From a virus (taxonomy: Duplodnaviria; Caudoviricetes): 64,000 bases of DNA. Location of the stretch: the IMG/VR virus record IMGVR_UViG_3300028797_000118, positions 1 through 64,000 of that record. One strand, written 5' to 3'. Positions 3,001 to 42,490 of the stretch are shown here, one piece after another (positions within the stretch are counted from its first letter, which is position 1; each line of letters begins with the position of its first letter). A program made the translations under genes and the position numbers. Below the pieces are notes generated by a model. It did not search any database. It saw only the letters and a program-made list of their open reading frames with translations, and was not told the origin of the DNA.

Positions 3001-5163
3001 CGTTATCAGACTGAAATTGATGCCATAGAAGATGAAATCGATGCTTTAGAAGATCAGCAAGATGCGTTAGATGATCAGATTGATCGGCTTAATGAAGAGG
3101 TTGATAAGTATCAGGAAATGATTGATGCTATCAACGATGCTAATGATGCTCGTGAAAGAGAGCTTAATCTTCAGAAAGCTCAATACGAACTTCAGAGAGC
3201 TCAGAACCAACGAACCAAGCTGGTATATACTGGTGAAGTTGGACAGATGCGTTATGAGCGTGACGAATCTGGGGTACGTGAAGCCAAAGAAAACGTTAAG
3301 AAATCTGAAGATGAGATTTCTATTGCTGCTATCGAAAAGCAGATAAAGCTTCTTGAAGATGAGATTAAACTTATTGAAAAGCAAAAAGAAGAGCTTGAAG
3401 ATCAGGCAAAAACTTTAAAGAAACAACAGGAAGAAGTTCAGGAACAATTAGATAAATCAAATAGATATTATGAAAAACTTATAAAACAGCAAGAAAAGTT
3501 TTATGATGATCAGATAAAAGCTCTTGAAAAGACTAAAACAAAATGGGAAGAGCTTGGTGCGATAGAAGAAGTTTCTAAAGCTTGGGGACTTATTTCTGAT
3601 GAAATGGAAGAACTTGGCTTTACTGTTGAAGATGTTCTTAATGATGTTCCTGGAGCTTTTGATGCATTTAAAGATAAGTATGTGTCAGTTCTTCAAGAAA
3701 TGCATAGTGGTGATCAGGGATTTTTAGATGGCCTGAAGCAAAACGTTTCTGAGATTCCTACTGAATTTGGTAAGATAACTACTGCTACTTCAGAAGCAAA
3801 ACAGCCACTTTCAGATCTTTCTACTGCTGCGGATACAGCATCAACAAAAGTATCAACACTTGGTACTTCTGCTTCAACTGCATCAACGGGTGTTAGTTCT
3901 TTAAAGACCGCATCTGAGGGTATTTCTGATAATCTTAATAGCTTAAATGAAGTTGCAAGTTTTGAAGGATTGACGGAAGCTCTTATACCTGTTGAAGAAG
4001 CTCTGAGCCGTATAAAAGAACTTCTTGGAGGTGTAGGTGATCCAAGCGGAAATTCAATATCCGGAGCTATTGCTGCTTTAAATACTTTAAAATTAGATGA
4101 AGCTAAGAATGCTTTTGTAGAACTTGCAGGAGCTATCAGTGGAGTTGTTTCAGCTCTTAATGGCGGTGGAGGTGGAAACGTTGAAGACCTTCCTATCTAC
4201 AATGTATATAGGAATAATGGATTTGGTGAAGGTGCCGGTGCCGATACCGGTGGTGGCGGTCTTGTAAGTGCTATTCAGGCAGTTAAGAGTGCAGCAGAGA
4301 ATTATATCGGAACAAATTCGGAAGAAGCTGCTGAAAATACAATAGGTTCATTCGTAGCATTATTAGAGGCAATCAAAAAGATAATTGAACAGATTGGCGA
4401 AGATACTGAAACAGAATCTACTCTTCTATCTTCTATAAGTATTGTTTCGGATGTCTCACAAGAAGCAATAAATGGAGAAGATGGAGCTGTAAGTGCTTTT
4501 AATGATCTTAAAACCAAGATAGATGAAGTAACAAGTGCTGCAAGAGAACTATTGGATGTTCTTAAAGAGATTGCTTCAATGGAAGTGTCAGGTGTACATA
4601 CTTCAAGTTCTGGAAATCAGCATGGAGGATCATCTGGTTCATTTGGAGGATCAAATGCTCAGGGTAATCCAAATGTTAAGACAAGTGGAAGAAGTCTTGT
4701 TGGTGAACTTGGTCCGGAAGTTGTTGTAAGAGGTGATAAGTATAGAGTTGTTGGAACTGATGGTCCTGAATTTGTAAATCTTAAAAAGGGAGACATTGTC
4801 CTTAATAGTAAACAGACAAAAGAACTTTTTGAGAAGAAAAAGGATGGTCATGGCAAAGCGTTTGCTGAGGGAAGTGGATTTACTTCATTTAATTTTACAG
4901 ATTCTTATAATGCTCTTCTTAATAAAGTAAAAGCAATGGATATTCCAACAATGAGTGAGATTAAGACTTCGATTGATACTCTTACAAGAACTGTTCAGTC
5001 GGAAATAAAGAATATAACAACTACGAAGACAAATGTTACTCAGAACAACACGTTTAATATTAGTGGTGTGACAGGTGAAGAAGTTGCGGAGAAGATAAAT
5101 AATACTCTTGTAACCACTTTTTCTGGCATGAGTCTCAATGCATATCAGCGTAGTATGGCGTAA
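1..5163 (+). CDS. Phage tail tape measure protein (5'-truncated; frame is open from position 1)
   Basis: >1675 aa, long Ala/Glu/Lys-rich helical and coiled-coil stretches, C-terminal LVGELGPEVV...AFAEG motif typical of siphovirus TMPs; precedes tail-tip genes. Confidence 0.9.
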   Translation, partial: SIDKLKATAQEFWTTFINSKTAKIFIEFLTKALEILTRISKATHGMAIAPTGILLAMFGMNPREFIKVTQSMFDGILVKLGVMTTSMNEVGEVTSRTVNAFKAIKLSVAGIAAALAITAAVKVWEHFNVTVEETQESIDEITEKISELNSTIKELQDLETRTPEQESRLSLLREELQIQERLLEIENRRKVKEMFSSSKDSIIKQVTDAFDKENYSTVLRKYQEKWVRSDKDGKNQRTYFSDVMTAYDSAYKKLQEKLNKYNQEMRQNAVGSRAWEKASENYKKVQKEIKQRTDSLEKAYDREYEYYLQFSNIVLNIKKLRDSYAEDDPIQEELKKWQLIFENQLAQMQNALVRARERLGMSTDDLTLGSRLHTNLVDITKGNRTQFEELFKFTKNFTDEQKEAWIVVTKGAVNAKDAIDKWNKSLKEANNSTKFLSIDSSVLDSVTGINIRLKAQFDELASAYDAIFNGDNGFDLSEVDNDLLNSISETFVSSAVESELLSQEQATAAAEKFTRVLTDQKSTAIDVQNAFNELATSYFYAADGLKELNEENAEAIKQQLKKLGVKNADQVVDEYIRLKVDPDGYNKIKREVGKQMQEMEEGGTVDLHVRPVIDTKKLIEKEWNKVDPSLEPGGVATIFSSTFANKAGNVAINVTPILPNGEVLTPDELENYANMILEGVDSDEIPDIQLGAKFTGADAIEQAKKAAVTMHELQDVYYDLDEILLNITEDTFEESEARLKAAGVANAHALAVEFLNANLEAEALQEEAVKAATSDMAGETVHASESFIMEAQMSNLAKIHLADLVAAQTVFNQQGLDVDEKIAKLSSLATAYLGTAAAAKLVEMTNNRGYEHSYTLSPEEAWKQIIGEMATIEMPTIDFSSDGKNTKGAGGAGKDAADAYVEAYEKELKKLEDMRDRGLISEKEYLNRLKDLIDKYFKDREKYAEKYAEELKKYMDQMLSYYNSIISGVTTLLDKRINALQKNKDTTVDALNAEKDAAEDRYQTEIDAIEDEIDALEDQQDALDDQIDRLNEEVDKYQEMIDAINDANDARERELNLQKAQYELQRAQNQRTKLVYTGEVGQMRYERDESGVREAKENVKKSEDEISIAAIEKQIKLLEDEIKLIEKQKEELEDQAKTLKKQQEEVQEQLDKSNRYYEKLIKQQEKFYDDQIKALEKTKTKWEELGAIEEVSKAWGLISDEMEELGFTVEDVLNDVPGAFDAFKDKYVSVLQEMHSGDQGFLDGLKQNVSEIPTEFGKITTATSEAKQPLSDLSTAADTASTKVSTLGTSASTASTGVSSLKTASEGISDNLNSLNEVASFEGLTEALIPVEEALSRIKELLGGVGDPSGNSISGAIAALNTLKLDEAKNAFVELAGAISGVVSALNGGGGGNVEDLPIYNVYRNNGFGEGAGADTGGGGLVSAIQAVKSAAENYIGTNSEEAAENTIGSFVALLEAIKKIIEQIGEDTETESTLLSSISIVSDVSQEAINGEDGAVSAFNDLKTKIDEVTSAARELLDVLKEIASMEVSGVHTSSSGNQHGGSSGSFGGSNAQGNPNVKTSGRSLVGELGPEVVVRGDKYRVVGTDGPEFVNLKKGDIVLNSKQTKELFEKKKDGHGKAFAEGSGFTSFNFTDSYNALLNKVKAMDIPTMSEIKTSIDTLTRTVQSEIKNITTTKTNVTQNNTFNISGVTGEEVAEKINNTLVTTFSGMSLNAYQRSMA

Positions 5164-10535: not shown

Positions 10536-11864
10536 ATGGCTACTGCTAAAGAAATGTTAGATATAGCTCGTAAATATATAGGCGTTATTGAAAAACCAAA
10601 CAATAATGTTGTTTTTAATACAAGATATTATGGTAGGGAAGTTAATGGACCTCAGTATGCATGGTGTGCAGTTTTTATCTGGTGCTGCTTTAAAGAAGCT
10701 GATGCTTTGGATATTTTCTGTGGAGGACAAAAGACTGCTCTTTGCCAGTTTGCTTTGGATTACTATAGGAAAAATGGAAAGTTTTATAAAAAAGATCCTA
10801 AAGTTGGAGATCTTGTATTTTTTAAATTTGGTACGAATCAAAGAGAAACTGATCACATGGGTTTTGTAGAGAGTATAAATTCAGATGGTTCAGTTAATAC
10901 TATTGAGGGAAATACCTCTGATTCTAATCAGAATAATGGTGGTATGGTCATGAGGAAAAAGCGTTCTTCTAAGATAGTTGGATATGCAAGGCCCGATTAC
11001 GATGAAGAATTTAAAAGTCTTCCTTCCATAGATGAGACTTATCCACAAAAAGGAATAGATATGTCGAAATATCAGACTGGGGTAAATTATAAGGCACTCC
11101 GAGCTGAAGGAGTTAAGTTTGTTATCTTAAAGGTTATCCGTAAAGACCTTAAAAAAGATGATATGTTCGAGACTCATTATAAAGGCTGTATAGATGCTGG
11201 TATCCCAGTAAGAGCAGTTTATAACTACTCTTATGCTACAACTGTTGAAAAAGCAAAGATAGATGCAAAAAGAGTCATAGAAATCTTAAACGGAAGGGAT
11301 ATCCCTGTTGTTTTGGATGTTGAAGATGCATCTCAAAAGAATCTAAAGGAAAGACTTGTACAGATAATCAATGCTTATCAGAGTGTTATTGTAAGTGCAG
11401 GTCTTAAATTTTGTGTTTATACAGGACTTTCTTTTTATAAGAATTTTATTGAGCCATATAAAGATATGATAAATACGACTCAGTTTTGGATTGCAAGATA
11501 TCCGTCTACTAGTGAGATGAGCTTTAGTATATCTCCTCCCGCGAATAAAAAGCCCGATGTTAATGGGCTTATAGGTTGGCAGTATACGTCAAATGGAGTT
11601 ATTCCTAAAGCTTATAGTGGAAAGCTTGATTTCGATATTTTATATTCTTCTATCTTAAGACAGGAAAGAAAGACTGGAGTCATAACAGCAAATTCATTAA
11701 GGATACGGAGTACTCCAAGTACTTCTAACCTAAATAATGTTGTAGGATATCTTAAAAAAGGTGACAATGTCGTTATATATGCTACCGATGTTAAGACCGG
11801 ATGGTATCAGATAGATCTTGAAGGAAAGAAATGGATAAGTAATAAATACGTAAGATTAAATTAA
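10536..11864 (+). CDS. Endolysin: CHAP + GH25 muramidase + SH3b
   Basis: CHAP motifs AWCAVF, DHMGFVE, TIEGNT; GH25 motifs GIDMSKYQ, LDVED, WIARY, WQYTS; SH3b LRIRSTP...GWY. Confidence 0.9.
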   Translation: MATAKEMLDIARKYIGVIEKPNNNVVFNTRYYGREVNGPQYAWCAVFIWCCFKEADALDIFCGGQKTALCQFALDYYRKNGKFYKKDPKVGDLVFFKFGTNQRETDHMGFVESINSDGSVNTIEGNTSDSNQNNGGMVMRKKRSSKIVGYARPDYDEEFKSLPSIDETYPQKGIDMSKYQTGVNYKALRAEGVKFVILKVIRKDLKKDDMFETHYKGCIDAGIPVRAVYNYSYATTVEKAKIDAKRVIEILNGRDIPVVLDVEDASQKNLKERLVQIINAYQSVIVSAGLKFCVYTGLSFYKNFIEPYKDMINTTQFWIARYPSTSEMSFSISPPANKKPDVNGLIGWQYTSNGVIPKAYSGKLDFDILYSSILRQERKTGVITANSLRIRSTPSTSNLNNVVGYLKKGDNVVIYATDVKTGWYQIDLEGKKWISNKYVRLN

Positions 11865-24920: not shown

Positions 24921-25718
24921 ATGAGTATTAACATTGCTATCGCAAATCAAAAAGGAGGAGTAGGGAAAACAACGACTACTATTATCTTAGCTGATGCATT
25001 AAAGCACATTGGCTATAAGGTTCTTGTTATCGATCTTGATCCTCAGTGTAACACGACTGACACATATGGAGCAAAGCTTGAAGATGTATATACGATCTAT
25101 GATGTTCTTGATGGTGAATGCAAAACTGAAGAAGCTATACAAAAATTAGTATTAGGAGATATTATTCCTGGAGACAAACTACTTGCAGACAATCTTGATC
25201 ATTTTAATGCAAAGATGTCAAGAGAACTATTATTAAAAAAGAGACTAAAAGAAGTTGATAAGAAATATGATTTTGTTATAATCGATACCCCTCCTACGCT
25301 TGGTTTATATATGGTCAATGCGCTTGCTGCTTCAAATGGATGTGTAATTCCACTAAAGGCTGAGAGATATTCAGTAAGTGGTCTTGGAGAACTTTTTTCG
25401 ACAATAAACAATATAAGAGAAGCCGGAGTTAATGAAAATCTTAAGGTATATGGAACTCTTATAACCAATTTCGACACAAGAAACGACCTTGATAGAAGAC
25501 TTAAGATGGAACTTCCTGAGACTGCATCTCAGTACAATTTTAGGAATTTTAATTCTTATATAAGGATTTGTCAGGACATCAAGAAATCACAAAATCTTAA
25601 TTTTGAAGAGGGTGAGATAATAAATCGTTCATTGTTTGATAATTATCCTGGAAGTAATGCTGCTGAAGATTATGTAAAATTCACAAAAGAATTATTGGAG
25701 GTAATAAAGAATGGCTAA
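24921..25718 (+). CDS. parA: ParA/Soj partition ATPase
   Basis: NQKGGVGKTTT deviant Walker A, DLDPQ, IIDTPP Walker B; no N-terminal HTH (type Ib). Confidence 0.95.
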   Translation: MSINIAIANQKGGVGKTTTTIILADALKHIGYKVLVIDLDPQCNTTDTYGAKLEDVYTIYDVLDGECKTEEAIQKLVLGDIIPGDKLLADNLDHFNAKMSRELLLKKRLKEVDKKYDFVIIDTPPTLGLYMVNALAASNGCVIPLKAERYSVSGLGELFSTINNIREAGVNENLKVYGTLITNFDTRNDLDRRLKMELPETASQYNFRNFNSYIRICQDIKKSQNLNFEEGEIINRSLFDNYPGSNAAEDYVKFTKELLEVIKNG

Positions 25719-26280: not shown

Positions 26281-26376
26281 TTATTTCTTGAACTTTAAGA
26301 TGATTGCGATTATGAAAATAATAAATCCCATTATCACAAGATTCATACTCAAAGTTATAAGTAATAGTCTTAGCAT
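26281..26376 (-). CDS. Putative type I (holin-like) toxin, 31 aa: MLRLLLITLSMNLVIMGFIIFIIAIILKFKK
   Basis: Single hydrophobic helix with basic C-terminus, long structured leader, convergent sRNA; not in the ORF track (<60 aa). Confidence 0.75.
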   Translation of the reverse strand: MLRLLLITLSMNLVIMGFIIFIIAIILKFKK

Positions 26377-27150: not shown

Positions 27151-28404
27151 GTGATTATGGGGCAAAAAAAAACGCAAGATAGTACCACTGATATTCTTTC
27201 AAGTAAAAAATATACAAAGTCTAATGCTTTGGTCAATTCAAAGGGGAAAGCTGGATTATTAGCAGAAAAATTATTCGCAGTAGGAATTCAGAGAGCAGTT
27301 GAAGATGAAAAGACCGGCATTCTTACAACAACAATTCGAGGAATAGAACTAAAGAAGATTTTCCAAACTAATCGTGGATCGTTTTACGCTGATGTTAGTG
27401 CGTTGGTGGATCCGCCAACAAATGATTCTCCATCATTACTTGATTGGAGGATAATTTATAAAGATGACGAATCGCAGAGTATTGAAGCAATAAATGTTAT
27501 TACTGATTGTTCGTTCAAAAAAGGTGTTTTCGAAATAAGATTTAATAATAAGATCACACCACAGGTAAGAAGATTGCAAGCAAATTATACTATTTTTTCA
27601 CTTGCAGATACGATGCCTTTAAAAAGCATTTATTCTTTTAAATTATATGAGATATTAAAATCTGAATATGACAGACAAGATTATGCGGCTAAAAAAAGAG
27701 AATTATGGAATCCGAATGCAACCTATATAACGGAAATGCATATTGTTGATCTGAAACTAAGAGTAGGTATCATTGATAGTTCATGGAGTAATGAAATAGC
27801 TGAAGAGCTTAGAAAGCCTGATCCAGATTATAATCTGATTGAAAAAATCACGGATGCATTATTAAAAAGCGAAGGAGCTATTGATAAAAATAAAAAGACA
27901 TATAAGAGTTATAAGAGAATAGATAATTTTAAAAAAAATGTTCTTGATAGAGCAAAAGAAGAATTAGAAGAAAAAACATCTATAAAGTTTGATTATGAAA
28001 ATTTAACAGGAGGAGCAGGGGGAAAAGTATATGGAATAAGATTTTTTATTTCGAAAAATATAAAAGAATCTGATACTATTGAAATAGTTGAGAATCCAAA
28101 AGTTTTTATGTCGAAAGAAGAAAAATTTGAGATTCTGGAAACTATTGCTGATATGATTGGAAATTCATTTTCATATAGGGATGTCAAAGTTATTTCTGAA
28201 AGAGCAGGTTACAATATAGAGAAAGTAAAAAATGCGTATGAGATTATGTTAAGCAATAAGACAACAATAAGTGACCCAACTGCTTGGATGATTAGTGCTA
28301 TTGAAAAAAATTATCAGAGAGGGATAGGAACAAAGTTAGTAAAAACTTATGCAAATCCCAATGAAGATATTTCTGAATTAGAAGCATTACTTTTAGATAA
28401 CTAA
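27151..28404 (+). CDS. Plasmid replication initiator, Rep_3 family
   Basis: KSNALV, LKSIYSFKLYEILKS, FKKNVLDRAKEEL, GKVYGIRF motifs; adjacent iterons. Confidence 0.9.
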   Translation: MIMGQKKTQDSTTDILSSKKYTKSNALVNSKGKAGLLAEKLFAVGIQRAVEDEKTGILTTTIRGIELKKIFQTNRGSFYADVSALVDPPTNDSPSLLDWRIIYKDDESQSIEAINVITDCSFKKGVFEIRFNNKITPQVRRLQANYTIFSLADTMPLKSIYSFKLYEILKSEYDRQDYAAKKRELWNPNATYITEMHIVDLKLRVGIIDSSWSNEIAEELRKPDPDYNLIEKITDALLKSEGAIDKNKKTYKSYKRIDNFKKNVLDRAKEELEEKTSIKFDYENLTGGAGGKVYGIRFFISKNIKESDTIEIVENPKVFMSKEEKFEILETIADMIGNSFSYRDVKVISERAGYNIEKVKNAYEIMLSNKTTISDPTAWMISAIEKNYQRGIGTKLVKTYANPNEDISELEALLLDN

Positions 28405-33367: not shown

Positions 33368-34462
33368 ATGATAAAAGGCGTAAAATTTAGGATCTATCCC
33401 AACAAAGAACAACAACAATTAATAGACCAGACATTCGGATGTTGTAGACTTGTATATAATAAAGCTCTTGCATTAAGAAAAGAAGCATATGAAGAAAGAC
33501 AAGAAAAGGTGGGCTACATGCAAACTTCTGCTATGCTCACAAAACTCAAAAAGCAAGATGAGTTCGTCTTCCTTAAAGATGTAGATTCTATCGCTCTGCA
33601 GCAGTCTCTCAGAGACTTAGACCGTGGATTCAAAAACTTTTTTGAGAAACGTGCAAGGCATCCTCAGTTCAAGAGTAAACATAACAACCATCAGTCCTAT
33701 AGAACCATTAACCAAGGTGATAACATCCGTATTGTTGGCAAATATATCAAACTTCCTAAGCTTGGATATGTAAAAATCAGGCAATCTATGGAAGTTGGGC
33801 ATATCAATAACGTCACCATTGAGAAGACTCCTACAGGTAAATATTTCGTAGTCCTTAACGTGGATTTTGAGCCTAAACTGCGTCCAAACAACGGATGTAT
33901 GGTCGGTATAGATGTTGGTATTAAAGAGTTCTATTCTGACAGTAACGGTAATGTCGTAAACAATCCTAAATACCTCGAAATGTCACAGCGTAAACTCATT
34001 CGTGAACAGCGCAGGTTGTCACGTAAACAGAAAGACTCTAATAACCGCAATAAACAACGTATTCGTGTGGCTAAAGTTCATGAGAAGATAACCAATCAGC
34101 GTAATGATTTCCTTCAAAAGCAGTCAACTATGCTTGTTAGCGAAAACCAAACTATCTGCATAGAAGACCTTAATGTTAAGGGAATGATACATAATCATAA
34201 GCTTGCCAAATCTATAGCAAGTGCATCATGGAGTAAGTTCTTTACAATGCTTGAATATAAAGCTGCATGGTACGGGAGTGAGGTAATCAAAGTGCCCACT
34301 ATGTACCCAAGCAGTCAGACTTGCAGTTGTTGCGGCTATAAAAATCCACTTGTAAAGAATCTTGCTGTACGCACATGGGAATGTCCTCAGTGTCATGCAA
34401 AGCATGACAGAGACACTAACGCAAGTATAAACATACTAAACAAAGGGCTATTCATAGCCTGA
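33368..34462 (+). CDS. tnpB: TnpB RNA-guided endonuclease (IS200/IS605 family)
   Basis: KFRIYP...FGCCRLVYN HTH; RuvC GIDVG / IEDL / DRDTNA; CSCC..CPQC zinc finger. Confidence 0.95.
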   Translation: MIKGVKFRIYPNKEQQQLIDQTFGCCRLVYNKALALRKEAYEERQEKVGYMQTSAMLTKLKKQDEFVFLKDVDSIALQQSLRDLDRGFKNFFEKRARHPQFKSKHNNHQSYRTINQGDNIRIVGKYIKLPKLGYVKIRQSMEVGHINNVTIEKTPTGKYFVVLNVDFEPKLRPNNGCMVGIDVGIKEFYSDSNGNVVNNPKYLEMSQRKLIREQRRLSRKQKDSNNRNKQRIRVAKVHEKITNQRNDFLQKQSTMLVSENQTICIEDLNVKGMIHNHKLAKSIASASWSKFFTMLEYKAAWYGSEVIKVPTMYPSSQTCSCCGYKNPLVKNLAVRTWECPQCHAKHDRDTNASINILNKGLFIA

Positions 34463-34590
34463 AACATAAACAGTACCGTAGGGCATACGGGAATTTACGC
34501 TTGTGGAGACCGTGTAAAACTAAAGCTCTTATAGCAATGTAGTGGTCGTCGAAACAAGAATCCCACGACTTTAGTCGTGTGGAGTGTCAA
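34463..34590 (+). mobile_element. IS200/IS605 right end / omegaRNA scaffold of the solo tnpB
   Basis: Subterminal hairpin CCCACGAC-TTTA-GTCGTGTGG then GTGTCAA terminus; resembles the right end at 38093-38125. Confidence 0.85.
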
Positions 34591-34976: not shown

Positions 34977-35045
34977 GAGGGTGCGGAGCTAAAAAGCTCC
35001 GCGAAAAGGGTGTATGTGTCATGTTTGTGGGGACAAACATTTGAC

Positions 35046-35234
35046 CTAAACTTTAATTGTTTTACATATATTCTTATCGATCCATTGAACTAATCTATCT
35101 CTTGGTATGATATATTGTTTATTTATTCTGATTTTGGGAAAGTCATCTTTTCTCACTAAAGAATATGTTTGGTTTATTCCAATGCCTAGAAGTTCCGACA
35201 ATTCTTTTACTGTCATCATCTCTTTCATAATCAT
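35046..35234 (-). CDS. Excisionase-like HTH DNA-binding protein
   Basis: MTVKELSELLGIG...YSLV...FPKIRI...IPRDRL..WI (HTH_17 pattern). Confidence 0.8.
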   Translation of the reverse strand: MIMKEMMTVKELSELLGIGINQTYSLVRKDDFPKIRINKQYIIPRDRLVQWIDKNICKTIKV

Positions 35235-35237
35235 TCC

Positions 35238-35468
35238 TCACAATTGGTTTAGAAATGCTTGAGCAATATTCTGATTGGTATATAAGTTTTCTTCATCTTC
35301 TATCCCAATCATATAAGCACATCCTTTTTCTTCCCAAGCAAAAATCATATTTGGATAAACTTTTGTGATTTTTAGTTTATAAACTTTTTTTGTTCCGGTT
35401 AGTTTATTATGAAATGCATAATAAACATACATACCTGGACTATATTCTTCAGTAAAATCAATATCCAT
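35238..35468 (-). CDS. Hypothetical protein
   Basis: 76 aa ORF in operon. Confidence 0.55.
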   Translation of the reverse strand: MDIDFTEEYSPGMYVYYAFHNKLTGTKKVYKLKITKVYPNMIFAWEEKGCAYMIGIEDEENLYTNQNIAQAFLNQL

Positions 35469-35961
35469 GTTGTCTTTCTAATTTTGAAGCATACTCCAAA
35501 ATATTTGAAACATATTTACTTGGTTTAGTGGCAGAAAAATTTTTTTCTCCATGATATATTGCAAGAACAATTGCAGGATCTTCATATTCTTCAAAAAGTT
35601 CAGAAAGAAGATCAGCTGCTATTAGTAAATTATTATATGGATTACAGATATCGGACTCGTCAATATTTAATTTTTGCAACCTTTTTTTGTGGCTTGAAAG
35701 ATGTATTTGCATAAGTCCGTAGCAACCTTCTGAATTTTTAATATTAGGGATATATCTACTTTCATGATATGCAATAGCTTCTAATAATTCGGGACTGATA
35801 TTATATCTTTCACCTACCAAATTTGCTGCAATTTCGATATTTCTGGGAATTTCTTCTTGCTCATAAAATTGAAGACTTTTAGCTGAATAGTCTTCATCTG
35901 AAGCATAAGTTGTTGGACACATAAGTATAAAGATTCCCAAGAATAATAAGAACTTTTTCAT
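35458..35961 (-). CDS. Secreted SLT-family lytic transglycosylase
   Basis: Signal peptide MKKFLLFLGIFIL; AIAYHES (catalytic Glu), GLMQ, AIYH motifs. Confidence 0.85.
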   Translation of the reverse strand: MKKFLLFLGIFILMCPTTYASDEDYSAKSLQFYEQEEIPRNIEIAANLVGERYNISPELLEAIAYHESRYIPNIKNSEGCYGLMQIHLSSHKKRLQKLNIDESDICNPYNNLLIAADLLSELFEEYEDPAIVLAIYHGEKNFSATKPSKYVSNILEYASKLERQHGY

Positions 35962-36052
35962 ATTGTTTCCTCCAACTGATAAATTAATGATACGTTATAA
36001 TCACTTAAAGTGTCAACCGTTAATTTTGTCAATCAATAAATCAATTTCATCA

Positions 36053-36081
36053 TTGAAATCAATATATTTTTTTGTTATAGT
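36053..36081 (+). promoter_or_regulatory. Promoter of toxin mRNA (locus 2)
   Basis: TTGAAA-17-TATAGT with extended TG. Confidence 0.65.
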
Positions 36082-36285
36082 GTTCTACAGGTGGTAGCGG
36101 TTCCCTTGATAGTAATTACAAGGGAGGGACGGCGCCGATGGATTATATCACAGTTGTAACGCTGATTACCAAATGTCGCCGTAAAGCCCCTTGCTTTAGC
36201 AATGGGGATATAAGGCGACTATTATATTGCTTGAAGTTATCTAATTTCTATTGCATTAGATAGACATTAGCTATATAATGTATAT

Positions 36286-36678
36286 ATGGAATACAAATCA
36301 AATCACAATGTAGTCTATTCCTGCAAATACCATGTGGTATGGTGTCCTAAGTATCGACGTTCCGTTTTAATAAACGGTGTTGATGTTCGCTTAAAGGAGT
36401 TGATTAAAAAAATCTGCGACCAACTTAACGTCGAAATCATCGAAATGGAAATCATGCCAGACCATGTACATTTGCTTATGGGAGTAGACCCTCAATTCGG
36501 AGTACATAAAGCCGTAAAACAAATTAAAGGATATTCTTCTAAAGTATTGAGAGATGAGTTTCCCTGGCTTAAATCAAGGCTTCCGAGCCTCTGGACAAAC
36601 AGCTACTTTGTTAGCACAGTTGGTGGTGCTCCACTTGCTGTCATTAAACAGTATATTGAGAATCAGAAAAATGTGTAG
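36286..36678 (+). CDS. tnpA: IS200 Y1 (HUH) transposase
   Basis: YHVVWCPKYRR, DHVH, KGYSS, LWTNSYF, YIENQ. Confidence 0.97.
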   Translation: MEYKSNHNVVYSCKYHVVWCPKYRRSVLINGVDVRLKELIKKICDQLNVEIIEMEIMPDHVHLLMGVDPQFGVHKAVKQIKGYSSKVLRDEFPWLKSRLPSLWTNSYFVSTVGGAPLAVIKQYIENQKNV

Positions 36679-36687
36679 GTGTCACTT

Positions 36688-36852
36688 ATGAACCAAGAAC
36701 TCAAAAATATTATTCTTGCAAAATGTGATGATCGTGAACGTCTGGGATATGACCATCTAAACGATTCTGATATTATGGATATCCTTGAAGAGTGTAACAA
36801 CAAGAATATATCTGTAACCCGTAAAGAATTAGAGCAGTTAGGAATGGATTAA
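36688..36852 (+). CDS. Small passenger protein inside the IS (54 aa)
   Basis: MNQELKNIILAKCDDRERLGYDHLNDSDIMDILEECNNKNISVTRKELEQLGMD fills the tnpA-tnpB gap; stop abuts the tnpB ATG. Confidence 0.6.
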   Translation: MNQELKNIILAKCDDRERLGYDHLNDSDIMDILEECNNKNISVTRKELEQLGMD

Positions 36853-37989
36853 ATGCAATTATCAGAAACAGTAAAACTCTATATGACTAAAGAGCAAAGG
36901 TCTCTTGTCGTTATGGCTATGAACGAGTATATAAGTACCGTAAATAGCCTTGTTTCTGTTGCTGTAAATGGAACGTCTATCAGTAAATATACAACTGCTG
37001 ATGTTAGTGCAAACCTTCCATCTGCATTAACAAATCAGTGTATTCGTGATGCCAGATCTATTATAAACAAATACAGTAAAGCTGTACGCAAGGCTGACAG
37101 CAAAAACAAGCAGCTTGAAAAACGTGGTTCTGAAATCAGAGTAAAGGAACCTTCCGTTCCTGTCTTAAAAAGACCTTGCTGCTATATCAATAATCAGAAC
37201 TTCAAAATCAAGGATAACCATATTGAATTTCCCGTTTTGATGGGAGGCAAGTCAAAGCGTATAGCAATTCACACATCTATGACCGATAGACAGAAATCTG
37301 TACTTGCGGACTCTAAACTTGGCACAATGCGTATTGTTTATAAAGGCAACAAGATAATGGCTCAAATCGTGTATGAGGTTGCTGAAACCGAATATTCTAA
37401 TGATGGCAATATCATGGGTATTGACCTTGGTATTAAGTGTCCTGCGGTGTCTTGTATTTCTGACGGTAGCGTTAAATTCTACGGTAATGGTCGCAAAAAT
37501 AAATATATGCGCAGACATTATAAGTATCTCCGTAAGAAACTCCAAAAAGCTAAACATCCTGAAGCTGTGGGCCGCATTAACAACAAAGAACAGCGCATTA
37601 TGAAGGATCTCGACCATAAGTTAAGCCACGACATTGTAGAAACTGCGGTTGCTCACAATGTTAAAACCATAAAATTAGAGCGATTAGCAAATATCCGCTC
37701 TACGACAAGAACAAGTCGCAAAAACAACCACAGTCTGCATACATGGTCATTCTATAGACTTGCACAGTATATAGAATATAAAGCCAAACTTGCAGGCATT
37801 AAAGTTGAGTACGTAAATCCCGCATACACAAGTCAGACATGTCCTGTCTGTGGTCATGTACATCATGCCAATGATAGGAACTATGTTTGTAAGTGTGGAT
37901 TCCATATCCACAGGGATTTGCTCGGTGCTATGAATATCTGTAACTCAACTGAGTATGTTGGCGATAGTAATATCAGACATACTGCCTAA
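36853..37989 (+). CDS. tnpB: TnpB RNA-guided endonuclease
   Basis: GIDLG / LERL / HRD RuvC residues; YTSQTCPVCG...CKCG zinc finger. Confidence 0.93.
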   Translation: MQLSETVKLYMTKEQRSLVVMAMNEYISTVNSLVSVAVNGTSISKYTTADVSANLPSALTNQCIRDARSIINKYSKAVRKADSKNKQLEKRGSEIRVKEPSVPVLKRPCCYINNQNFKIKDNHIEFPVLMGGKSKRIAIHTSMTDRQKSVLADSKLGTMRIVYKGNKIMAQIVYEVAETEYSNDGNIMGIDLGIKCPAVSCISDGSVKFYGNGRKNKYMRRHYKYLRKKLQKAKHPEAVGRINNKEQRIMKDLDHKLSHDIVETAVAHNVKTIKLERLANIRSTTRTSRKNNHSLHTWSFYRLAQYIEYKAKLAGIKVEYVNPAYTSQTCPVCGHVHHANDRNYVCKCGFHIHRDLLGAMNICNSTEYVGDSNIRHTA

Positions 37990-38192
37990 GCTGCTATATG
38001 CACTGGCTTAGGATGGGTAATGGCATACCCATACCTTGCACTACGACCTACTAGAAATAGACTGGTCAGCCGATAACTTCGGCAGGTAGCAAGAATCCCC
38101 TGCCTTTAGGCATGGGGAGTGTCAAAGCGGTTATTAATTGCTTGATTAATTTTTTCGGGCTTGTTCTCAAAATAATTGAGAATGCAGACAAT

Positions 38193-38275
38193 AATAAAAA
38201 CCGCTCCTAACCCGGAAAAGTTTTGAGCGGTTTTTATTAATCATCTTAACTTCAAGGGTATCGCTACCACTTGTC
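38193..38275 (-). ncRNA. Putative antitoxin sRNA A (locus 2)
   Basis: TTGAAA-16-TATAAT promoter (38309-38282); overlaps toxin 3' end and shares its terminator. Confidence 0.75.
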
Positions 38276-38312
38276 TAGTCTATTATAGCAAATTATTATA
38301 TATTTTCAAGCA

Positions 38313-38393
38313 ATAAAAAATCACTCCAGCCCGTTAAAGTTGTGAGTGATTTTTTAATTTCTCTCGCTTCAAAGGGGTATCACTACCGCCTTC
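38313..38393 (-). ncRNA. Orphan paralogous sRNA B
   Basis: TTGAAA-16-TATAAT promoter (38427-38400); homologous to sRNA A with compensatory terminator changes; no toxin on the opposite strand. Confidence 0.7.
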
Positions 38394-38494
38394 TTTATTA
38401 TTATAGCACAAAAATATATTATTTCAAGCAATAACATTCCCCATCATCAAGAGAACAATTCGGATACTCTTTACTCCTTTAGCTGATGGAAGTG

Positions 38495-41400
38495 TCAAGA
38501 TTCGGAGATAATAGAATATTTGGTGACTAATAATTCTTTATCTTCTAATTGTTTCCATACTTCTTTTCCTACATCATTTACTATTTTAGCCCATTTGAAA
38601 TCATTGGCCCATTCTTTTATATGTAATATTTGACCCTCGTCAAATGGATTTTTTTCAAAAACTTTTTTGCGAAACTTTGCAATTATATTGAATCCAGTTT
38701 TTAATTGATATAAAGTTACAAGTTTAGATTGTTTGCCATTTATTTTTGATGCAACATATACATCTTCAGAAACATTCGGTATAGTGATTTGCAAATATCC
38801 AAGACATTCTAATTCATAATTTATTTTATCGAAAATTGTTGTTTGGGGCATAGGATATTTATTTATAATGGTTCTAATTAATGGTTTTGTATCTTCAAAA
38901 ATCATTTTTTTATTTGTAGATTTTTGAGCATATTTTTCAAAGTCACTATAATCATAAGTGGATTCTAGTATTTCTTCTTTTTTAAACTCTTTTCTGCTAT
39001 AAAATTTATTAAATATTTCAGTTTGCTTAAGAAGTTCATTTATATCTCCAAACATAGAAAAATAGTTTATTTTTATCAATATTATGAGCTGTCGAGAATC
39101 AATGTTTGTTTCGTTCTTTATATCAGCTAAAAGATCAATAAAATCGCAGTATTTTTCTTTTTTCAATTGATAAAGTTCTTCAGCTATTGTACGACTCATA
39201 TTAAGAACAGCCGATAAAGCAGGGACAATCAGTTTATTTTGAGGATCTGCTTTGAATTCTCTATTATCTAAACCAAATAAATAAGCTCCTTCAGATATTC
39301 CGAATCCTTTTTTCATTTCATTTTTAAGAGCTACAACTTTTGATTTATTACCTTTTTGTACATAATAATTTAGTAAGGTTTCATAAAATTCATATGGATA
39401 ATGTGCTTTTTGCCAAGCTTGATAAAGGCCATCAAGTGCTACAGCATATGCATGAGAACTATTAAATGAATATCCACAGTTATCATTTATGATTATCCAT
39501 ACTTTTTCTGCACTTTCCTGAGCTTTATTTTCAGATAAATGCTCTTCTTCAATCAATTTTTTCTTAAATCCGAGAATAAATCTAGTTTTAAGTGGCTTAA
39601 CTTTTTCAGGATGTTTTTTTGCAATTGCCTTAATTGCACTATAACACTCGCTCATTGGAAATCCCGCATAGTTAAGAACCATCATACATTGTTCTTGAAA
39701 AAAGATATAAGAAACAGGAAGTTCTTCTGTTCGTAGCATATTATCAAGAGCAGGTATTCCATATGAGAAATCTTCTCTACTTTCAAATTTGGAATACATT
39801 GATTTAAATCCTGGCCTTATCGCAGCAACAAATGCACTGAGCTCAGATATATTATGTGGTTTATATTTCATGCACTTATTTCTTGTGTTTTCTTTTTCAA
39901 CCTGATTTATACTTATGGTTAATCCTTTAGCATAAATATCCCAAGTAGCTTCATCATTTTTCGTTTTTTCTATTAAGGTATCGACATCAAAATGTTCTAT
40001 ACCGATACGTTTAAAAACAAGATCTATTAAAAGAACAACGTCAACTTTTAATATATCATTTTTTAAAAATTTATAATTTTCTGCTATAGCTCCATCTATT
40101 ACACATGTAATATATTCTTTTTTAGATGTTCTGCTCTTACATTTTATTAAGCCAATTTCTCTGCGTATATCCCCATCATATAAAAGATAAGCACTTGGAG
40201 CACGTTTTTTGTCGGAAATAACGCCCCAATACTCTTTACTCTTTTCTATATATTCAGAGTATTGTTCATCAACATAATCATAAATATTTATTTCGTTTTC
40301 TTCATCATCAGAAGCGTTTTTAATAGCTTCATCATATTGACTTATTTGTTTTGAGATTGTATTTGCAAGGTCAAAGTTCATATTTTTTGCTTTAGCATAC
40401 ATTTTAAATGCTGCAAGCTTTTTCATTGTACCAAAAGCAAGCATGGCAACAGCATGATTTTCACCTAATATTCGTTGTTGTGCTTGCTCAAAGATTTCTG
40501 GTGTACCTACGTTTAAATCTATATCTGGAAGAGAACGAGTCTCAAGAATCCTTGTAGTGGAAATAAATCTTTCTGGATATAACTTAATAGCAGATTTAAA
40601 CCTATCTATTTTTGAAAATCCGCAAAGTGTATTTGAAAAGAAACCAATAGCAGATCCTCTTCCGGTATCAGTGATAAGACCACCATGTTTAAGAGCATCT
40701 TGAACAATTGCATAATCAAGAAGAGGATAATCACACATACCGGTATCTTTATAAGTTTGAACTTCAGCTTTAACCCCTTCATAATATCTTTGATAATCTT
40801 CTGAAGGAATCTTCTTCATATATTCTTTAAATTTCTTAGTTATAAGTCTTGAATATTTTTTATCTTTTTCAGCTTTTGTTAGATTGGGATATAAAGATGG
40901 AAGTTTTATATCTTTAGTAAAAATGCGAACATTATCATAATCACAAAAATCTAATGCAATGTCAGTATTATTCATTGCACGATGAATAAGCTCATCAGAA
41001 AAAACTCCTTGAGCTTTAAATCTATTGATTACATTTTCGTCGCTTGGATAATCCATAAACCAACCATCTTCATCATCATAATGGACATCCTTTGCTTCTA
41101 AAAGATAATCTCTTAATTTTTCATCTTCTGAATTAGTATAATGTGAATCAAGTCCTACAATAAAATCAATATTGTATTTTTTTGCAAGTTCTAATTGATG
41201 AAAAGACCAATCTTTTTGTTTTTTTGTATTATGATATTGAGCTTCTAAGAAGAAGTTTTCTCCAAAATGATCATGGAATTGCCCTACAATTTCGTCAATA
41301 TCTTCATATCCTGAAAAAGCAATACAAGCGGATGATACTACGACATCTTTAGGCGGTAAGCTTAATATCAAAGGAATGTCGATACGCGGTCTATAATAAT

Positions 41401-41725
41401 ATCCGGTAATATTAGCTTCAGATAAGATATCATTTATTGCTTCTCTTCCTTGATTTGATTTTGCCCAAATACAGATATGATGATTGGATTTATCTTTTTC
41501 AAAACGATCTTTAACCCAATAAGCTTCGGTTCCAATTACAGCTTTTAAATTATATTTTTTGGCAAGTTCATATGTTTGGAAATAATAGCCTTGCCATCCA
41601 TGTTCAATAGACGACAAGACTTTGTGATTTAATTCTAATGCACGTTTAGCATAATCTTCATTTGAAACAACTGCATCTGTAATCATGATATTCGAATATG
41701 AAGTATGACGATGTAAATTTTGCAT
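38495..41725 (-). CDS. dnaE: DNA polymerase III alpha subunit (family C)
   Basis: PHP HRHTSYS...DSH; GRGSA, PDIDLN, LKNDIL, RPG, FQEQ, YSFNSSHA. Confidence 0.95.
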   Translation of the reverse strand: MQNLHRHTSYSNIMITDAVVSNEDYAKRALELNHKVLSSIEHGWQGYYFQTYELAKKYNLKAVIGTEAYWVKDRFEKDKSNHHICIWAKSNQGREAINDILSEANITGYYYRPRIDIPLILSLPPKDVVVSSACIAFSGYEDIDEIVGQFHDHFGENFFLEAQYHNTKKQKDWSFHQLELAKKYNIDFIVGLDSHYTNSEDEKLRDYLLEAKDVHYDDEDGWFMDYPSDENVINRFKAQGVFSDELIHRAMNNTDIALDFCDYDNVRIFTKDIKLPSLYPNLTKAEKDKKYSRLITKKFKEYMKKIPSEDYQRYYEGVKAEVQTYKDTGMCDYPLLDYAIVQDALKHGGLITDTGRGSAIGFFSNTLCGFSKIDRFKSAIKLYPERFISTTRILETRSLPDIDLNVGTPEIFEQAQQRILGENHAVAMLAFGTMKKLAAFKMYAKAKNMNFDLANTISKQISQYDEAIKNASDDEENEINIYDYVDEQYSEYIEKSKEYWGVISDKKRAPSAYLLYDGDIRREIGLIKCKSRTSKKEYITCVIDGAIAENYKFLKNDILKVDVVLLIDLVFKRIGIEHFDVDTLIEKTKNDEATWDIYAKGLTISINQVEKENTRNKCMKYKPHNISELSAFVAAIRPGFKSMYSKFESREDFSYGIPALDNMLRTEELPVSYIFFQEQCMMVLNYAGFPMSECYSAIKAIAKKHPEKVKPLKTRFILGFKKKLIEEEHLSENKAQESAEKVWIIINDNCGYSFNSSHAYAVALDGLYQAWQKAHYPYEFYETLLNYYVQKGNKSKVVALKNEMKKGFGISEGAYLFGLDNREFKADPQNKLIVPALSAVLNMSRTIAEELYQLKKEKYCDFIDLLADIKNETNIDSRQLIILIKINYFSMFGDINELLKQTEIFNKFYSRKEFKKEEILESTYDYSDFEKYAQKSTNKKMIFEDTKPLIRTIINKYPMPQTTIFDKINYELECLGYLQITIPNVSEDVYVASKINGKQSKLVTLYQLKTGFNIIAKFRKKVFEKNPFDEGQILHIKEWANDFKWAKIVNDVGKEVWKQLEDKELLVTKYSIISES

Positions 41726-41742: not shown

Positions 41743-41949
41743 TTAATTTTCATAATTCAGATATTCGTCTACTTTGCTCATATCATATTCAATGGTCCCT
41801 TTTCCTCTTTCTAATTTGAGTTCATTATCCGCTTCATTAAAAAGAAAATTTTTAAGACATCTGCTATCTTGAGTCTGACAAAATTTTTTCCCTTTATAGA
41901 CCCAATACCAACTATCCAATTCACATCCACACCATTCACAATAATCCAT
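41743..41949 (-). CDS. Small zinc-binding protein
   Basis: CEWCG...C...C. Confidence 0.55.
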   Translation of the reverse strand: MDYCEWCGCELDSWYWVYKGKKFCQTQDSRCLKNFLFNEADNELKLERGKGTIEYDMSKVDEYLNYEN

Positions 41950-42490
41950 TTTTTTGCTCTCTTTTATCAGTAAAGGTTTTTATTCGAATAAAACGAAAAC
42001 CTTTTGTTTGACTGTATGCTCCACTTAGAACTTTATTTATTGCTTTAAGGTTTGCTCCGGTAGCTTTTGCTGCAGCTGTTTGAGAATTATAAAGAGTTGC
42101 ATTATAATCTTTGTCTACTACCAATATATCTGTTCTATTAGATTTAGGGATCAAATGATCTTCGTGTGCCATTTGAGAATTTTTTCTTCTTGTCGTCCAT
42201 TGAAGATTTTCAGCAGTATTTTCCTCTTTGTTATTATTGATATGATCAACAACATCAAAATTTATAGGATCAGGATTAGGAACAAATGCTTTAGCAACAA
42301 GAATATTTACTCTTTTTCTTTTTCTAAAAACATTACAAGTATAGTATCCATCTCTATCTTTTGATTGTTTTAAAAGTCGAGTCTTTCTTTTTACACGACC
42401 TTTATTACTAATATAATAATCTTTTGTACCTTCAATTAAAGCCCATTTCTCTCCTGGTAAAGTTGGAACTGGCATACATTTTTCCTCCAA
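41936..42490 (-). CDS. NUMOD4-HNH-NUMOD1 homing endonuclease
   Basis: EKW..I..Y.ISNKGRV; VDHINNNK..N..ENLQWTT..N; C-terminal YNSQTAAAKATG. Confidence 0.88.
   Translation of the reverse strand: MEEKCMPVPTLPGEKWALIEGTKDYYISNKGRVKRKTRLLKQSKDRDGYYTCNVFRKRKRVNILVAKAFVPNPDPINFDVVDHINNNKEENTAENLQWTTRRKNSQMAHEDHLIPKSNRTDILVVDKDYNATLYNSQTAAAKATGANLKAINKVLSGAYSQTKGFRFIRIKTFTDKREQKNGLL

Follow-up and report, generated by a model that had tools for sequence, protein, structure and literature searches.

An IS608-like insertion sequence within a type I toxin-like gene of a predicted phage-plasmid

The TnpB protein of ISDra2 is said, in work by Karvelis from 2021, to act with an omegaRNA, the transposon-adjacent motif (TAM) being the target motif of TnpA and the guide lying beyond the right end of the element. 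In donor-joint homing, the TAM is likewise the TnpA target motif and the guide corresponds to the DNA outside the right end; TnpB, which is TAM-sensitive, cuts the donor joint left by excision, and recombination then brings the element back (Meers 2023, bioRxiv 10.1101/2023.03.14.532601). IS608 (ISHp608) of Helicobacter pylori is characterized by the tetranucleotides TTAC and TCAA and by the left guide AAAG, and its excision is scarless, the donor joint retaining TTAC (PMC3201880). Here we describe an IS608-like insertion sequence (IS) in a window of 64,000 nucleotides (nt), namely the first 64 kb of the 124,447-bp IMG/VR virus record IMGVR_UViG_3300028797_000118; all positions below are those of this window. 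The element is 1,956 bp long (36170-38125, plus strand), carries tnpA, an extra gene of 54 amino acids (aa), tnpB and a putative omegaRNA, and interrupts an open reading frame (ORF) of 38 aa which resembles a type I toxin gene. This is probably an ordinary IS608-like insertion, tolerated in a dispensable type I toxin-like gene within a toxin-antitoxin (TA) hotspot.

The type I TA loci of Gram-positive bacteria, such as par/Fst-RNA II (pAD1), TxpA/RatA and BsrG/SR4 (B. subtilis prophages), have convergent small RNAs (sRNAs) overlapping at the 3' side. The locus in the window recalls them by a peptide shorter than 40 aa that has a single hydrophobic helix and ends in a charged tail, by its place on a mobile element, by a predicted convergent antisense RNA with a common bidirectional terminator, and by a leader pairing with the ribosome-binding site. 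It differs from them in the lack of sequence similarity, in the presence of two tandem sRNA genes, and in the 5' ends of these sRNAs, where the motif of the toxin leader recurs in the same sense and not as its complement. Also, hok/sok loci of E. coli K-12 were reportedly found by Pedersen and Gerdes, in 1999, to be inactivated by insertion sequences. There too a type I toxin locus would have been disabled by an IS and its antisense parts left in place; those ISs are said to lack an RNA-guided nuclease and those loci to be chromosomal, whereas the present one lies on a predicted phage-plasmid.

Ends and mobility of the IS608-like element

The following features were recognized in the element and at its left border.

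36166-36169, plus strand: TTAC, TnpA target and left cleavage tetranucleotide, expected TnpB TAM
36183-36186, plus strand: left-end guide AAAG, directly 5' of IPL
36187-36207, plus strand: subterminal imperfect palindrome IPL, left-end hairpin
36286-36678, plus strand: tnpA, Y1 HUH transposase of 130 aa (PF01797, E = 2e-45)
36688-36852, plus strand: passenger gene (orf54) of 54 aa between tnpA and tnpB; 57 aa if read from GTG 36679
36853-37989, plus strand: tnpB, 378 aa, candidate RNA-guided nuclease (PF07282 and PF01385)
37979-38125, plus strand: putative omegaRNA scaffold and right end; the 5' limit is approximate and overlaps the 3' end of tnpB
38093-38096, plus strand: GAAT, 5' of the right hairpin
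38097-38117, plus strand: IPR hairpin of the right end
38122-38125, plus strand: TCAA, terminal bases of the IS

The left junction reads ...CTGATTAC followed by CAAATGTCGCC, the IS starting at 36170 immediately after TTAC, and the right junction reads ...GGGGAGTGTCAA followed by AGCGGTTATT..., the last base of the IS being 38125 and the flank starting at 38126. These limits were compared with those of some 45 related copies in genomes of Bacillota from gut and rumen, whose TnpB proteins are 63-85% identical to that of the window. The left ends of these copies read TTAC followed by C(A/G)A, and the right ends read GAGTGTCAA followed by variable sequence. Of the 38 related copies listed, nearly all have TTAC immediately 5' of the left end; every listed right end terminates in TGTCAA, beyond which the sequence is unrelated. 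Since the copies agree at both ends and diverge beyond, the ends of the IS can be taken as exact, and the junction that the earlier note had placed between ...CTGATTAC and AGCGGTTATT... is correct to the base. Terminal inverted repeats are absent and the joined flanks form a continuous ORF with no duplicated bases, that is, with no target duplication. The two hairpins (36187-36207 and 38097-38117) are 80% alike when compared as direct repeats.

The related element was found at 78 loci in Bacillota genomes, and it is single-copy in the 124,447-bp record. Three copies (L099-L101) have the same tnpA-orf54-tnpB layout at 92-93.5% identity and occupy other TTAC sites with different left flanks; in those with the right end on the contig, similarity to the window stops at the end of the IS. 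With a Y1 HUH TnpA, subterminal palindromes, TTAC/TCAA specificity and copies at different sites, the element belongs to the IS200/IS605 family and is IS608-like. The insertion site itself is not special, as TTAC occurs 598 times in the window. A right-end-like 23-mer at 38476-38498 (74%), which stops with GTGTCAA at the stop codon of the neighbouring polymerase gene, has no hairpin and was judged to be probably a chance match.

The best solved relative of TnpA is the TnpA of ISHp608 (2a6m, E = 6e-57, 127 residues aligned), to which both the HVH (HUH) motif and the tyrosine of the C-terminal KQY could be aligned. With the full-length TnpA proteins encoded by related copies it shares 66-96% identity. 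TnpB matches TnpB and Cas12f structures and has the zinc-finger/TNB domain; in the alignment with 8hr5, the D of GIDLG, the E of KLERL and the D of HRDLL stand opposite the conserved RuvC acidic residues. It is full length relative to its homologues at 63-85% identity. The enzymes are intact as judged from their sequences and the element looks active; TnpB may be a working nuclease.

The likeness to IS608 extends to most of these traits. The TnpA proteins are about 70% identical, judged by eye from the 2a6m alignment, tnpA and tnpB are co-oriented, insertion is 3' of TTAC with TCAA at the end, and AAAG and GAAT stand 5' of the hairpins. GAAT is the right guide of IS608 as well, though the text of PMC3201880 does not contain this tetranucleotide. 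Both elements lack inverted terminal repeats and target duplication, and the left-end hairpin region of the window matches Helicobacter IS608-type left ends at 95%. The window element differs by its extra 54-aa gene between tnpA and tnpB, by its hosts, which are gut and rumen Bacillota and their phages, and by its spacing: 17 nt here versus 19 from TTAC to the foot of the hairpin, and 8 nt versus 10 at the right end.

The passenger gene orf54 is not present in the approximately 45 related copies, which have 12 nt between tnpA and tnpB. Its homologues fall into 21 clusters at 58-94% identity; on the long phage contigs (75-94 kb) that were looked up, they are free-standing. The predicted model of the protein is a confident three-helix bundle (predicted local distance difference test, pLDDT, 90.7) with an invariant L-x-D-S-D at the start of helix 2; a Foldseek search with the 54-aa protein gave no significant match, only weak acyl-carrier-protein-like rows. 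On L094 (344-580) and L091-L093 (about 3501-3740), an orf54 homologue is followed by about 70 nt resembling the right end of the IS (window 38056-38127, 79%). This combination occurs on several phage contigs of about 75-92 kb with no tnpA or tnpB called nearby, and it may be the remnant of an IS or the origin of the gene that the IS took up.

A second TnpB gene lies at 33368-34590 (364 aa, with HTH_OrfB_IS605, OrfB_IS605 and TNB domains), with neither tnpA nor a recognizable left end. It is followed by a related right end that stops at GAGTGTCAA (34590), and its expected guide would be CTAAATCATAAAAAGC..., beside a minus-strand ORF of 50 aa that is rich in cysteine.

The interrupted gene, its antitoxin-like partners and their surroundings

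The split gene and the elements around it are as follows.

36053-36081, plus strand: predicted promoter of the toxin-like gene, TTGAAA-17-TATAGT with TG
36089-36137, plus strand: toxin mRNA leader with the motif GGTGGTAGCGGTTCCCTTGA and a hairpin pairing with the ribosome-binding site AAGGGAGGG, from a predicted fold
36138-36169, plus strand: toxin-like ORF, 5' segment (codons 1-10 and 2 further bases)
38126-38210, plus strand: toxin-like ORF, 3' segment (27 codons and the stop)
38192-38239: predicted bidirectional terminator common to the toxin mRNA and sRNA A
38190-38309, minus strand: putative sRNA A gene, promoter 38309-38282 (11/12 match, TG), RNA about 38274-38190
38312-38427, minus strand: putative sRNA B gene, a tandem paralogue that has a terminator of its own; promoter 38427-38400, RNA about 38392-38312

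Removal of the IS in silico yields an ORF from ATG 36138 to the stop at 38208-38210, which encodes MDYITVVTLIT followed by AVINCLINFFGLVLKIIENADNNKNRS, 38 aa in all. This joined peptide, MDYITVVTLITAVINCLINFFGLVLKIIENADNNKNRS, is strongly hydrophobic in its core and polar in its tail; its maximal 19-residue hydropathy is 2.25 and, at less than 60 aa, it contains a predicted transmembrane helix. In the occupied state, the frame of the 5' part continues into the IS and gives an ORF of 41 aa that is not hydrophobic (36138-36263, hydropathy 0.43). The last 27 codons are in frame with an ATG at 38112 in the right-end hairpin of the IS, giving a 32-aa hybrid ORF with a hydropathy of 1.93. No Shine-Dalgarno sequence precedes 38112 and this ATG is within the 3' stem of the putative omegaRNA; translation of the hybrid ORF is unlikely.

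Sibling phages were located through the neighbouring transglycosylase (78% identical protein), L108 being left out as its upstream part is short. L102-L105 and L107 align straight through the junction with no IS (74-77% nt identity). The three of them that were read, L102-L104, have intact ORFs of 33-34 aa that are 58-64% identical to the joined peptide (pairwise E = 2e-13 for L103), and the core (A/S)VINCLIN(F/I)(F/I)GLVL is conserved among the window and L102-L104. The split ORF is therefore not a product of chance, since sibling phages encode intact homologues at the same place, and the earlier note's statement that precise removal restores a 38-aa membrane-toxin-like ORF is borne out.

Two cassettes of greater divergence, each with a 37-aa ORF, were also found, one at the corresponding position in the 126-kb sibling L002 and the other between tail-fibre genes in L089. 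Between these two ORFs, 6 codon changes are synonymous and 4, all of them in codons 5-11, are non-synonymous, which suggests purifying selection on the pair. As the distant member P0003 gave no significant BLASTP match with the joined peptide, homology to this branch rests on the alignment of the cassette DNA and on synteny. The joined peptide matched no Pfam toxin family (Fst/Ldr, Hok, TxpA, BsrG, Hol_Tox and others); Hol_Tox was hit at E = 0.052 (13.9 bits for a cut-off of 23.3) by the distant L002 member only. An exhaustive phmmer search with the distant member retrieved one relative, and the ESM Atlas search gave sub-threshold leads only. With six members found, the peptides appear to form a small, previously undescribed family. 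Because no Pfam toxin family is matched, the label "type I toxin" is architectural and is not meant as a family assignment.

The architecture is conserved beyond the window. The -10 region of the toxin-like gene and the leader downstream of it are kept in sibling cassettes, and the leader is conserved in L102-L104, L002 and L089. Putative sRNA A is likewise conserved, in L102-L104 and L089; its complementarity to the final 55 nt or so of the toxin mRNA is perfect, with an in silico duplex energy of -89.5 kcal/mol. Both sRNA promoters match at 11 of 12 positions and have the TG; from promoters and terminators, it is plausible that the antitoxin is intact. Toxicity of the peptide and expression of the sRNAs are predictions. 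Besides, a motif G(G/T)GGTAG(C/T)G(G/A)T.CCCTTGA begins the toxin leader (36089-36110) as well as both sRNAs (38251-38274 and 38370-38392, minus strand). It has the same sense in the RNAs, which makes it an inverted repeat in the DNA, and it is conserved in L089 and L102-L104; it could be a common binding site for a protein or RNA, or could pair with the AACCGCT arm of the terminator.

The gap holding the IS is bordered by the transglycosylase gene (35458-35961, minus strand, PF01464) and by a gene for a DnaE-like polymerase (38495-41725, minus strand). In siblings L102 (1825-2826) and L103 (468-1469), genes for a PemK-like toxin, a MazE-like antitoxin and a BrnA-like protein lie in this gap and adjoin the type I-like cassette; the polymerase-transglycosylase gap is a TA hotspot. 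In the polymerase relatives L086 and L087, other genes occupy the corresponding gap. A blastn search with both IS flanks against GenBank phages gave no match. Just upstream of the polymerase gene, a gene resembling HNH/NUMOD4 homing endonucleases (41936-42490, minus strand) is a further selfish element of this region.

A lysis gene is found in the window together with plasmid partition and replication initiator genes, the record is a virus contig of IMG/VR, and the genome of about 124 kb is predicted from this gene content to be a phage-plasmid. The genes concerned include the following.

10536-11864: GH25+CHAP lysin, lysis gene
24921-25718: ParA-type ATPase, partition gene
27151-28404: Rep_3, replication initiator

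A second type I-like locus, intact, is located between the ParA and Rep_3 genes (26281-26376, minus strand); it consists of a 31-aa ORF, MLRLLLITLSMNLVIMGFIIFIIAIILKFKK, in a convergent layout with a common terminator.

Expected TnpB target and the search for empty alleles

The last 150 nt or so of the IS were folded with RNAalifold over 46 copies, which gave 45 predicted pairs, 29 of them with compensatory changes. This conserved structured RNA at the right end fits an omegaRNA; the omegaRNA region matched no Rfam family, and an Rfam scan of 35000-39500 returned no match. The expected guide, given by its position relative to the right end, is the right flank.

38126-38145, plus strand: right flank, expected omegaRNA guide and target, AGCGGTTATTAATTGCTTGA

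The target expected in the donor joint is TTAC followed by AGCGGTTATTAATTGC. In the record, the sole DNA matching the guide is the junction itself, with TCAA and not TTAC on its 5' side, so that the occupied site should be protected, TCAA standing in place of the TAM. The likeness to the homing of ISDra2 and of ISGst (for the latter, Meers 2023, bioRxiv 10.1101/2023.03.14.532601) covers the expected TAM, the position of the guide, the expected protection by TCAA and the putative structured omegaRNA; the difference is that the donor joint falls inside a toxin-like ORF. The earlier note took TTAC as TAM and the right flank as guide, which is what TnpB should recognise under the donor-joint mechanism. 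Its further point, that the intact toxin gene is what TnpB is programmed to attack, is correct but no special property of this locus: the known mechanism implies as much for any IS605-family insertion, the donor joint being made up of TAM and guide.

That note also proposed searching the joined sequence for empty alleles, and no exact one was found in IMG/VR or in the JGI metagenomes. The exact joined 30-mer, the 24-mers of either flank and the 20-mer made of TAM and guide were absent from IMG/VR, and the 20-mer of the left flank was absent from the JGI metagenomes. The TAM and guide 20-mer had one match in the JGI metagenomes (L082), with unrelated flanks and beside sequence that by eye resembles 5S/23S rRNA, and this was taken as chance. 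All four contigs shown with an identical or truncated neighbouring transglycosylase carry the IS (ERZ27257207, ERZ27257203, SRR10393135 and SRR10393136), three further contigs of that lineage were grouped as having the same neighbouring genes, and no empty-site contig was seen among the assembly contigs shown of this phage lineage.

In the five sampled sibling alleles, TTGT stands at the TAM position (codons ATT-GTA versus ATT-ACA) and the 20-nt guide region has 4-5 mismatches, positions 4 and 7 included, in every case; the sibling sequence is TTGT followed by AGCAGTAATCAATTGT. The alleles of L002 and L089 have no match to TAM and guide. Thus, no natural cleavable target combining TAM and guide was found in IMG/VR, the JGI metagenomes, the siblings or the record itself. 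Given the TAM sensitivity of TnpB, TTGT and the guide mismatches should let the sampled siblings escape both insertion and cleavage by TnpB.

Explanations for the occupied site

The explanation that we prefer, a tolerated IS608-like insertion, supposes the following course. An element would have inserted 3' of TTAC, within codons 10-11 of the 38-aa toxin-like gene, leaving the promoter, the leader and codons 1-10 on one side and the transmembrane and C-terminal portion on the other. With promoter, leader and start severed from the transmembrane part, the toxin is most likely null, and the two convergent antitoxin-like sRNA genes would stay after insertion. The insertion would persist because the gene is dispensable; loss of the toxin should cost little because the antitoxins are retained and a second type I-like locus is present near the par and rep genes. 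Phage genomes are mostly essential coding sequence, so that surviving insertions should be found mainly in dispensable genes. After excision by TnpA, TnpB with its omegaRNA would cut the scarless joint TTAC + AGCGGTTATT..., and recombination with an occupied copy would restore the element. The undamaged state of the gene halves, the leader and the sRNA promoters fits a recent insertion.

Several points weigh against this explanation. The 32-aa hybrid ORF retains most of the hydrophobic segment, so that the loss of function may be incomplete. The undamaged gene halves, leader and sRNA promoters also fit selection to keep them. That the peptide is toxic and the sRNAs are produced is a prediction, and the absence of the peptide from the Pfam toxin families counts on the same side. 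Finally, when IS608's own TnpB was put through interference assays in E. coli, it proved inactive (Meers 2023, bioRxiv 10.1101/2023.03.14.532601), for which reason activity of TnpB in the present element cannot be assumed.

There is a small but real chance that the ORF encodes another antisense-regulated phage membrane protein, for example a holin-like protein or an exclusion factor, and not a TA toxin. No known type I toxin family is matched, the distant member gives the weak Hol_Tox hint, and one homologue is situated among tail-fibre genes and not near replication genes. On the other hand, a hydrophobic peptide of less than 40 aa with a polar tail and a sequestered ribosome-binding site is the classical Gram-positive type I layout, the convergent sRNA with a common bidirectional terminator belongs to that layout too, and type II TA genes stand alongside in the siblings.

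Very improbable, in our estimate, is the homing anti-addiction drive suggested by the earlier note, in which TnpB would cleave or convert co-resident siblings with an intact toxin, the antitoxin sRNAs would be kept, and the knock-out would spread. The donor joint is by construction the intact allele, the sRNA genes look intact with promoters matching at 11 of 12 positions, and the occupied allele is the only one seen in the lineage, which is compatible with fixation. Fixation would be explained equally well by TnpB-assisted retention of the element or by drift, and the programming is generic to IS605-family insertions, with nothing to indicate selection for it. The postulated cleavage of toxin-positive siblings also finds no targets: IMG/VR and the JGI metagenomes hold no exact empty allele, the five sibling alleles have TTGT and 4-5 guide mismatches with positions 4 and 7 among them, and L002 and L089 offer no match. 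We would give scarcely any credence to the specific form of this idea, that TnpB and the retained sRNAs make up a gene drive converting or eliminating co-infecting phage-plasmids that carry the progenitor TTAC toxin allele; if it were true, the homing nuclease of a transposon would have been co-opted in addiction conflicts of plasmid versus plasmid.

It is hardly to be expected, either, that the toxin has been rewired, the 32-aa hybrid ORF being translated from ATG 38112 by read-through from tnpB and the omegaRNA with control by sRNA A kept. The hybrid ORF does exist, with its hydrophobic segment and a hydropathy of 1.93, any read-through transcript would carry the region targeted by sRNA A, and transcripts would end at the toxin terminator. 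Against this stand the missing Shine-Dalgarno sequence and the position of the ATG in the right-end hairpin, that is, in the 3' stem of the omegaRNA. An in-frame fusion is moreover expected by chance in one case out of three, and the first 11 residues are lost, an N-terminal stretch that is conserved in the nearer siblings.

Weakest of all is the reversible toxin switch also put forward earlier, in which excision by TnpA would restore the toxin at a useful frequency and re-insertion or homing would silence it again: excision of the IS608 type is indeed scarless with TTAC kept (PMC3201880), TnpA looks intact and both gene halves are undamaged, but homing by TnpB, which destroys excision products so that the IS is retained, would work contrary to a switch, the sRNAs present would in any case silence a restored toxin, and no empty-site contig is among the lineage assemblies shown.

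The tolerated insertion is thus the explanation that we retain. The locus reveals no new mechanism, and the idea of a special drive or switch is unsupported. What it offers is an IS608-type insertion on a predicted phage-plasmid that is cleanly resolved, such that the allele preceding the insertion can be read exactly. The logic by which the guide of TnpB is the interrupted gene would hold for any gene hit by the element, and the siblings, which should escape through a two-base difference in the TAM (TTGT versus TTAC), would make a natural test bed for the stringency of TAM and seed.

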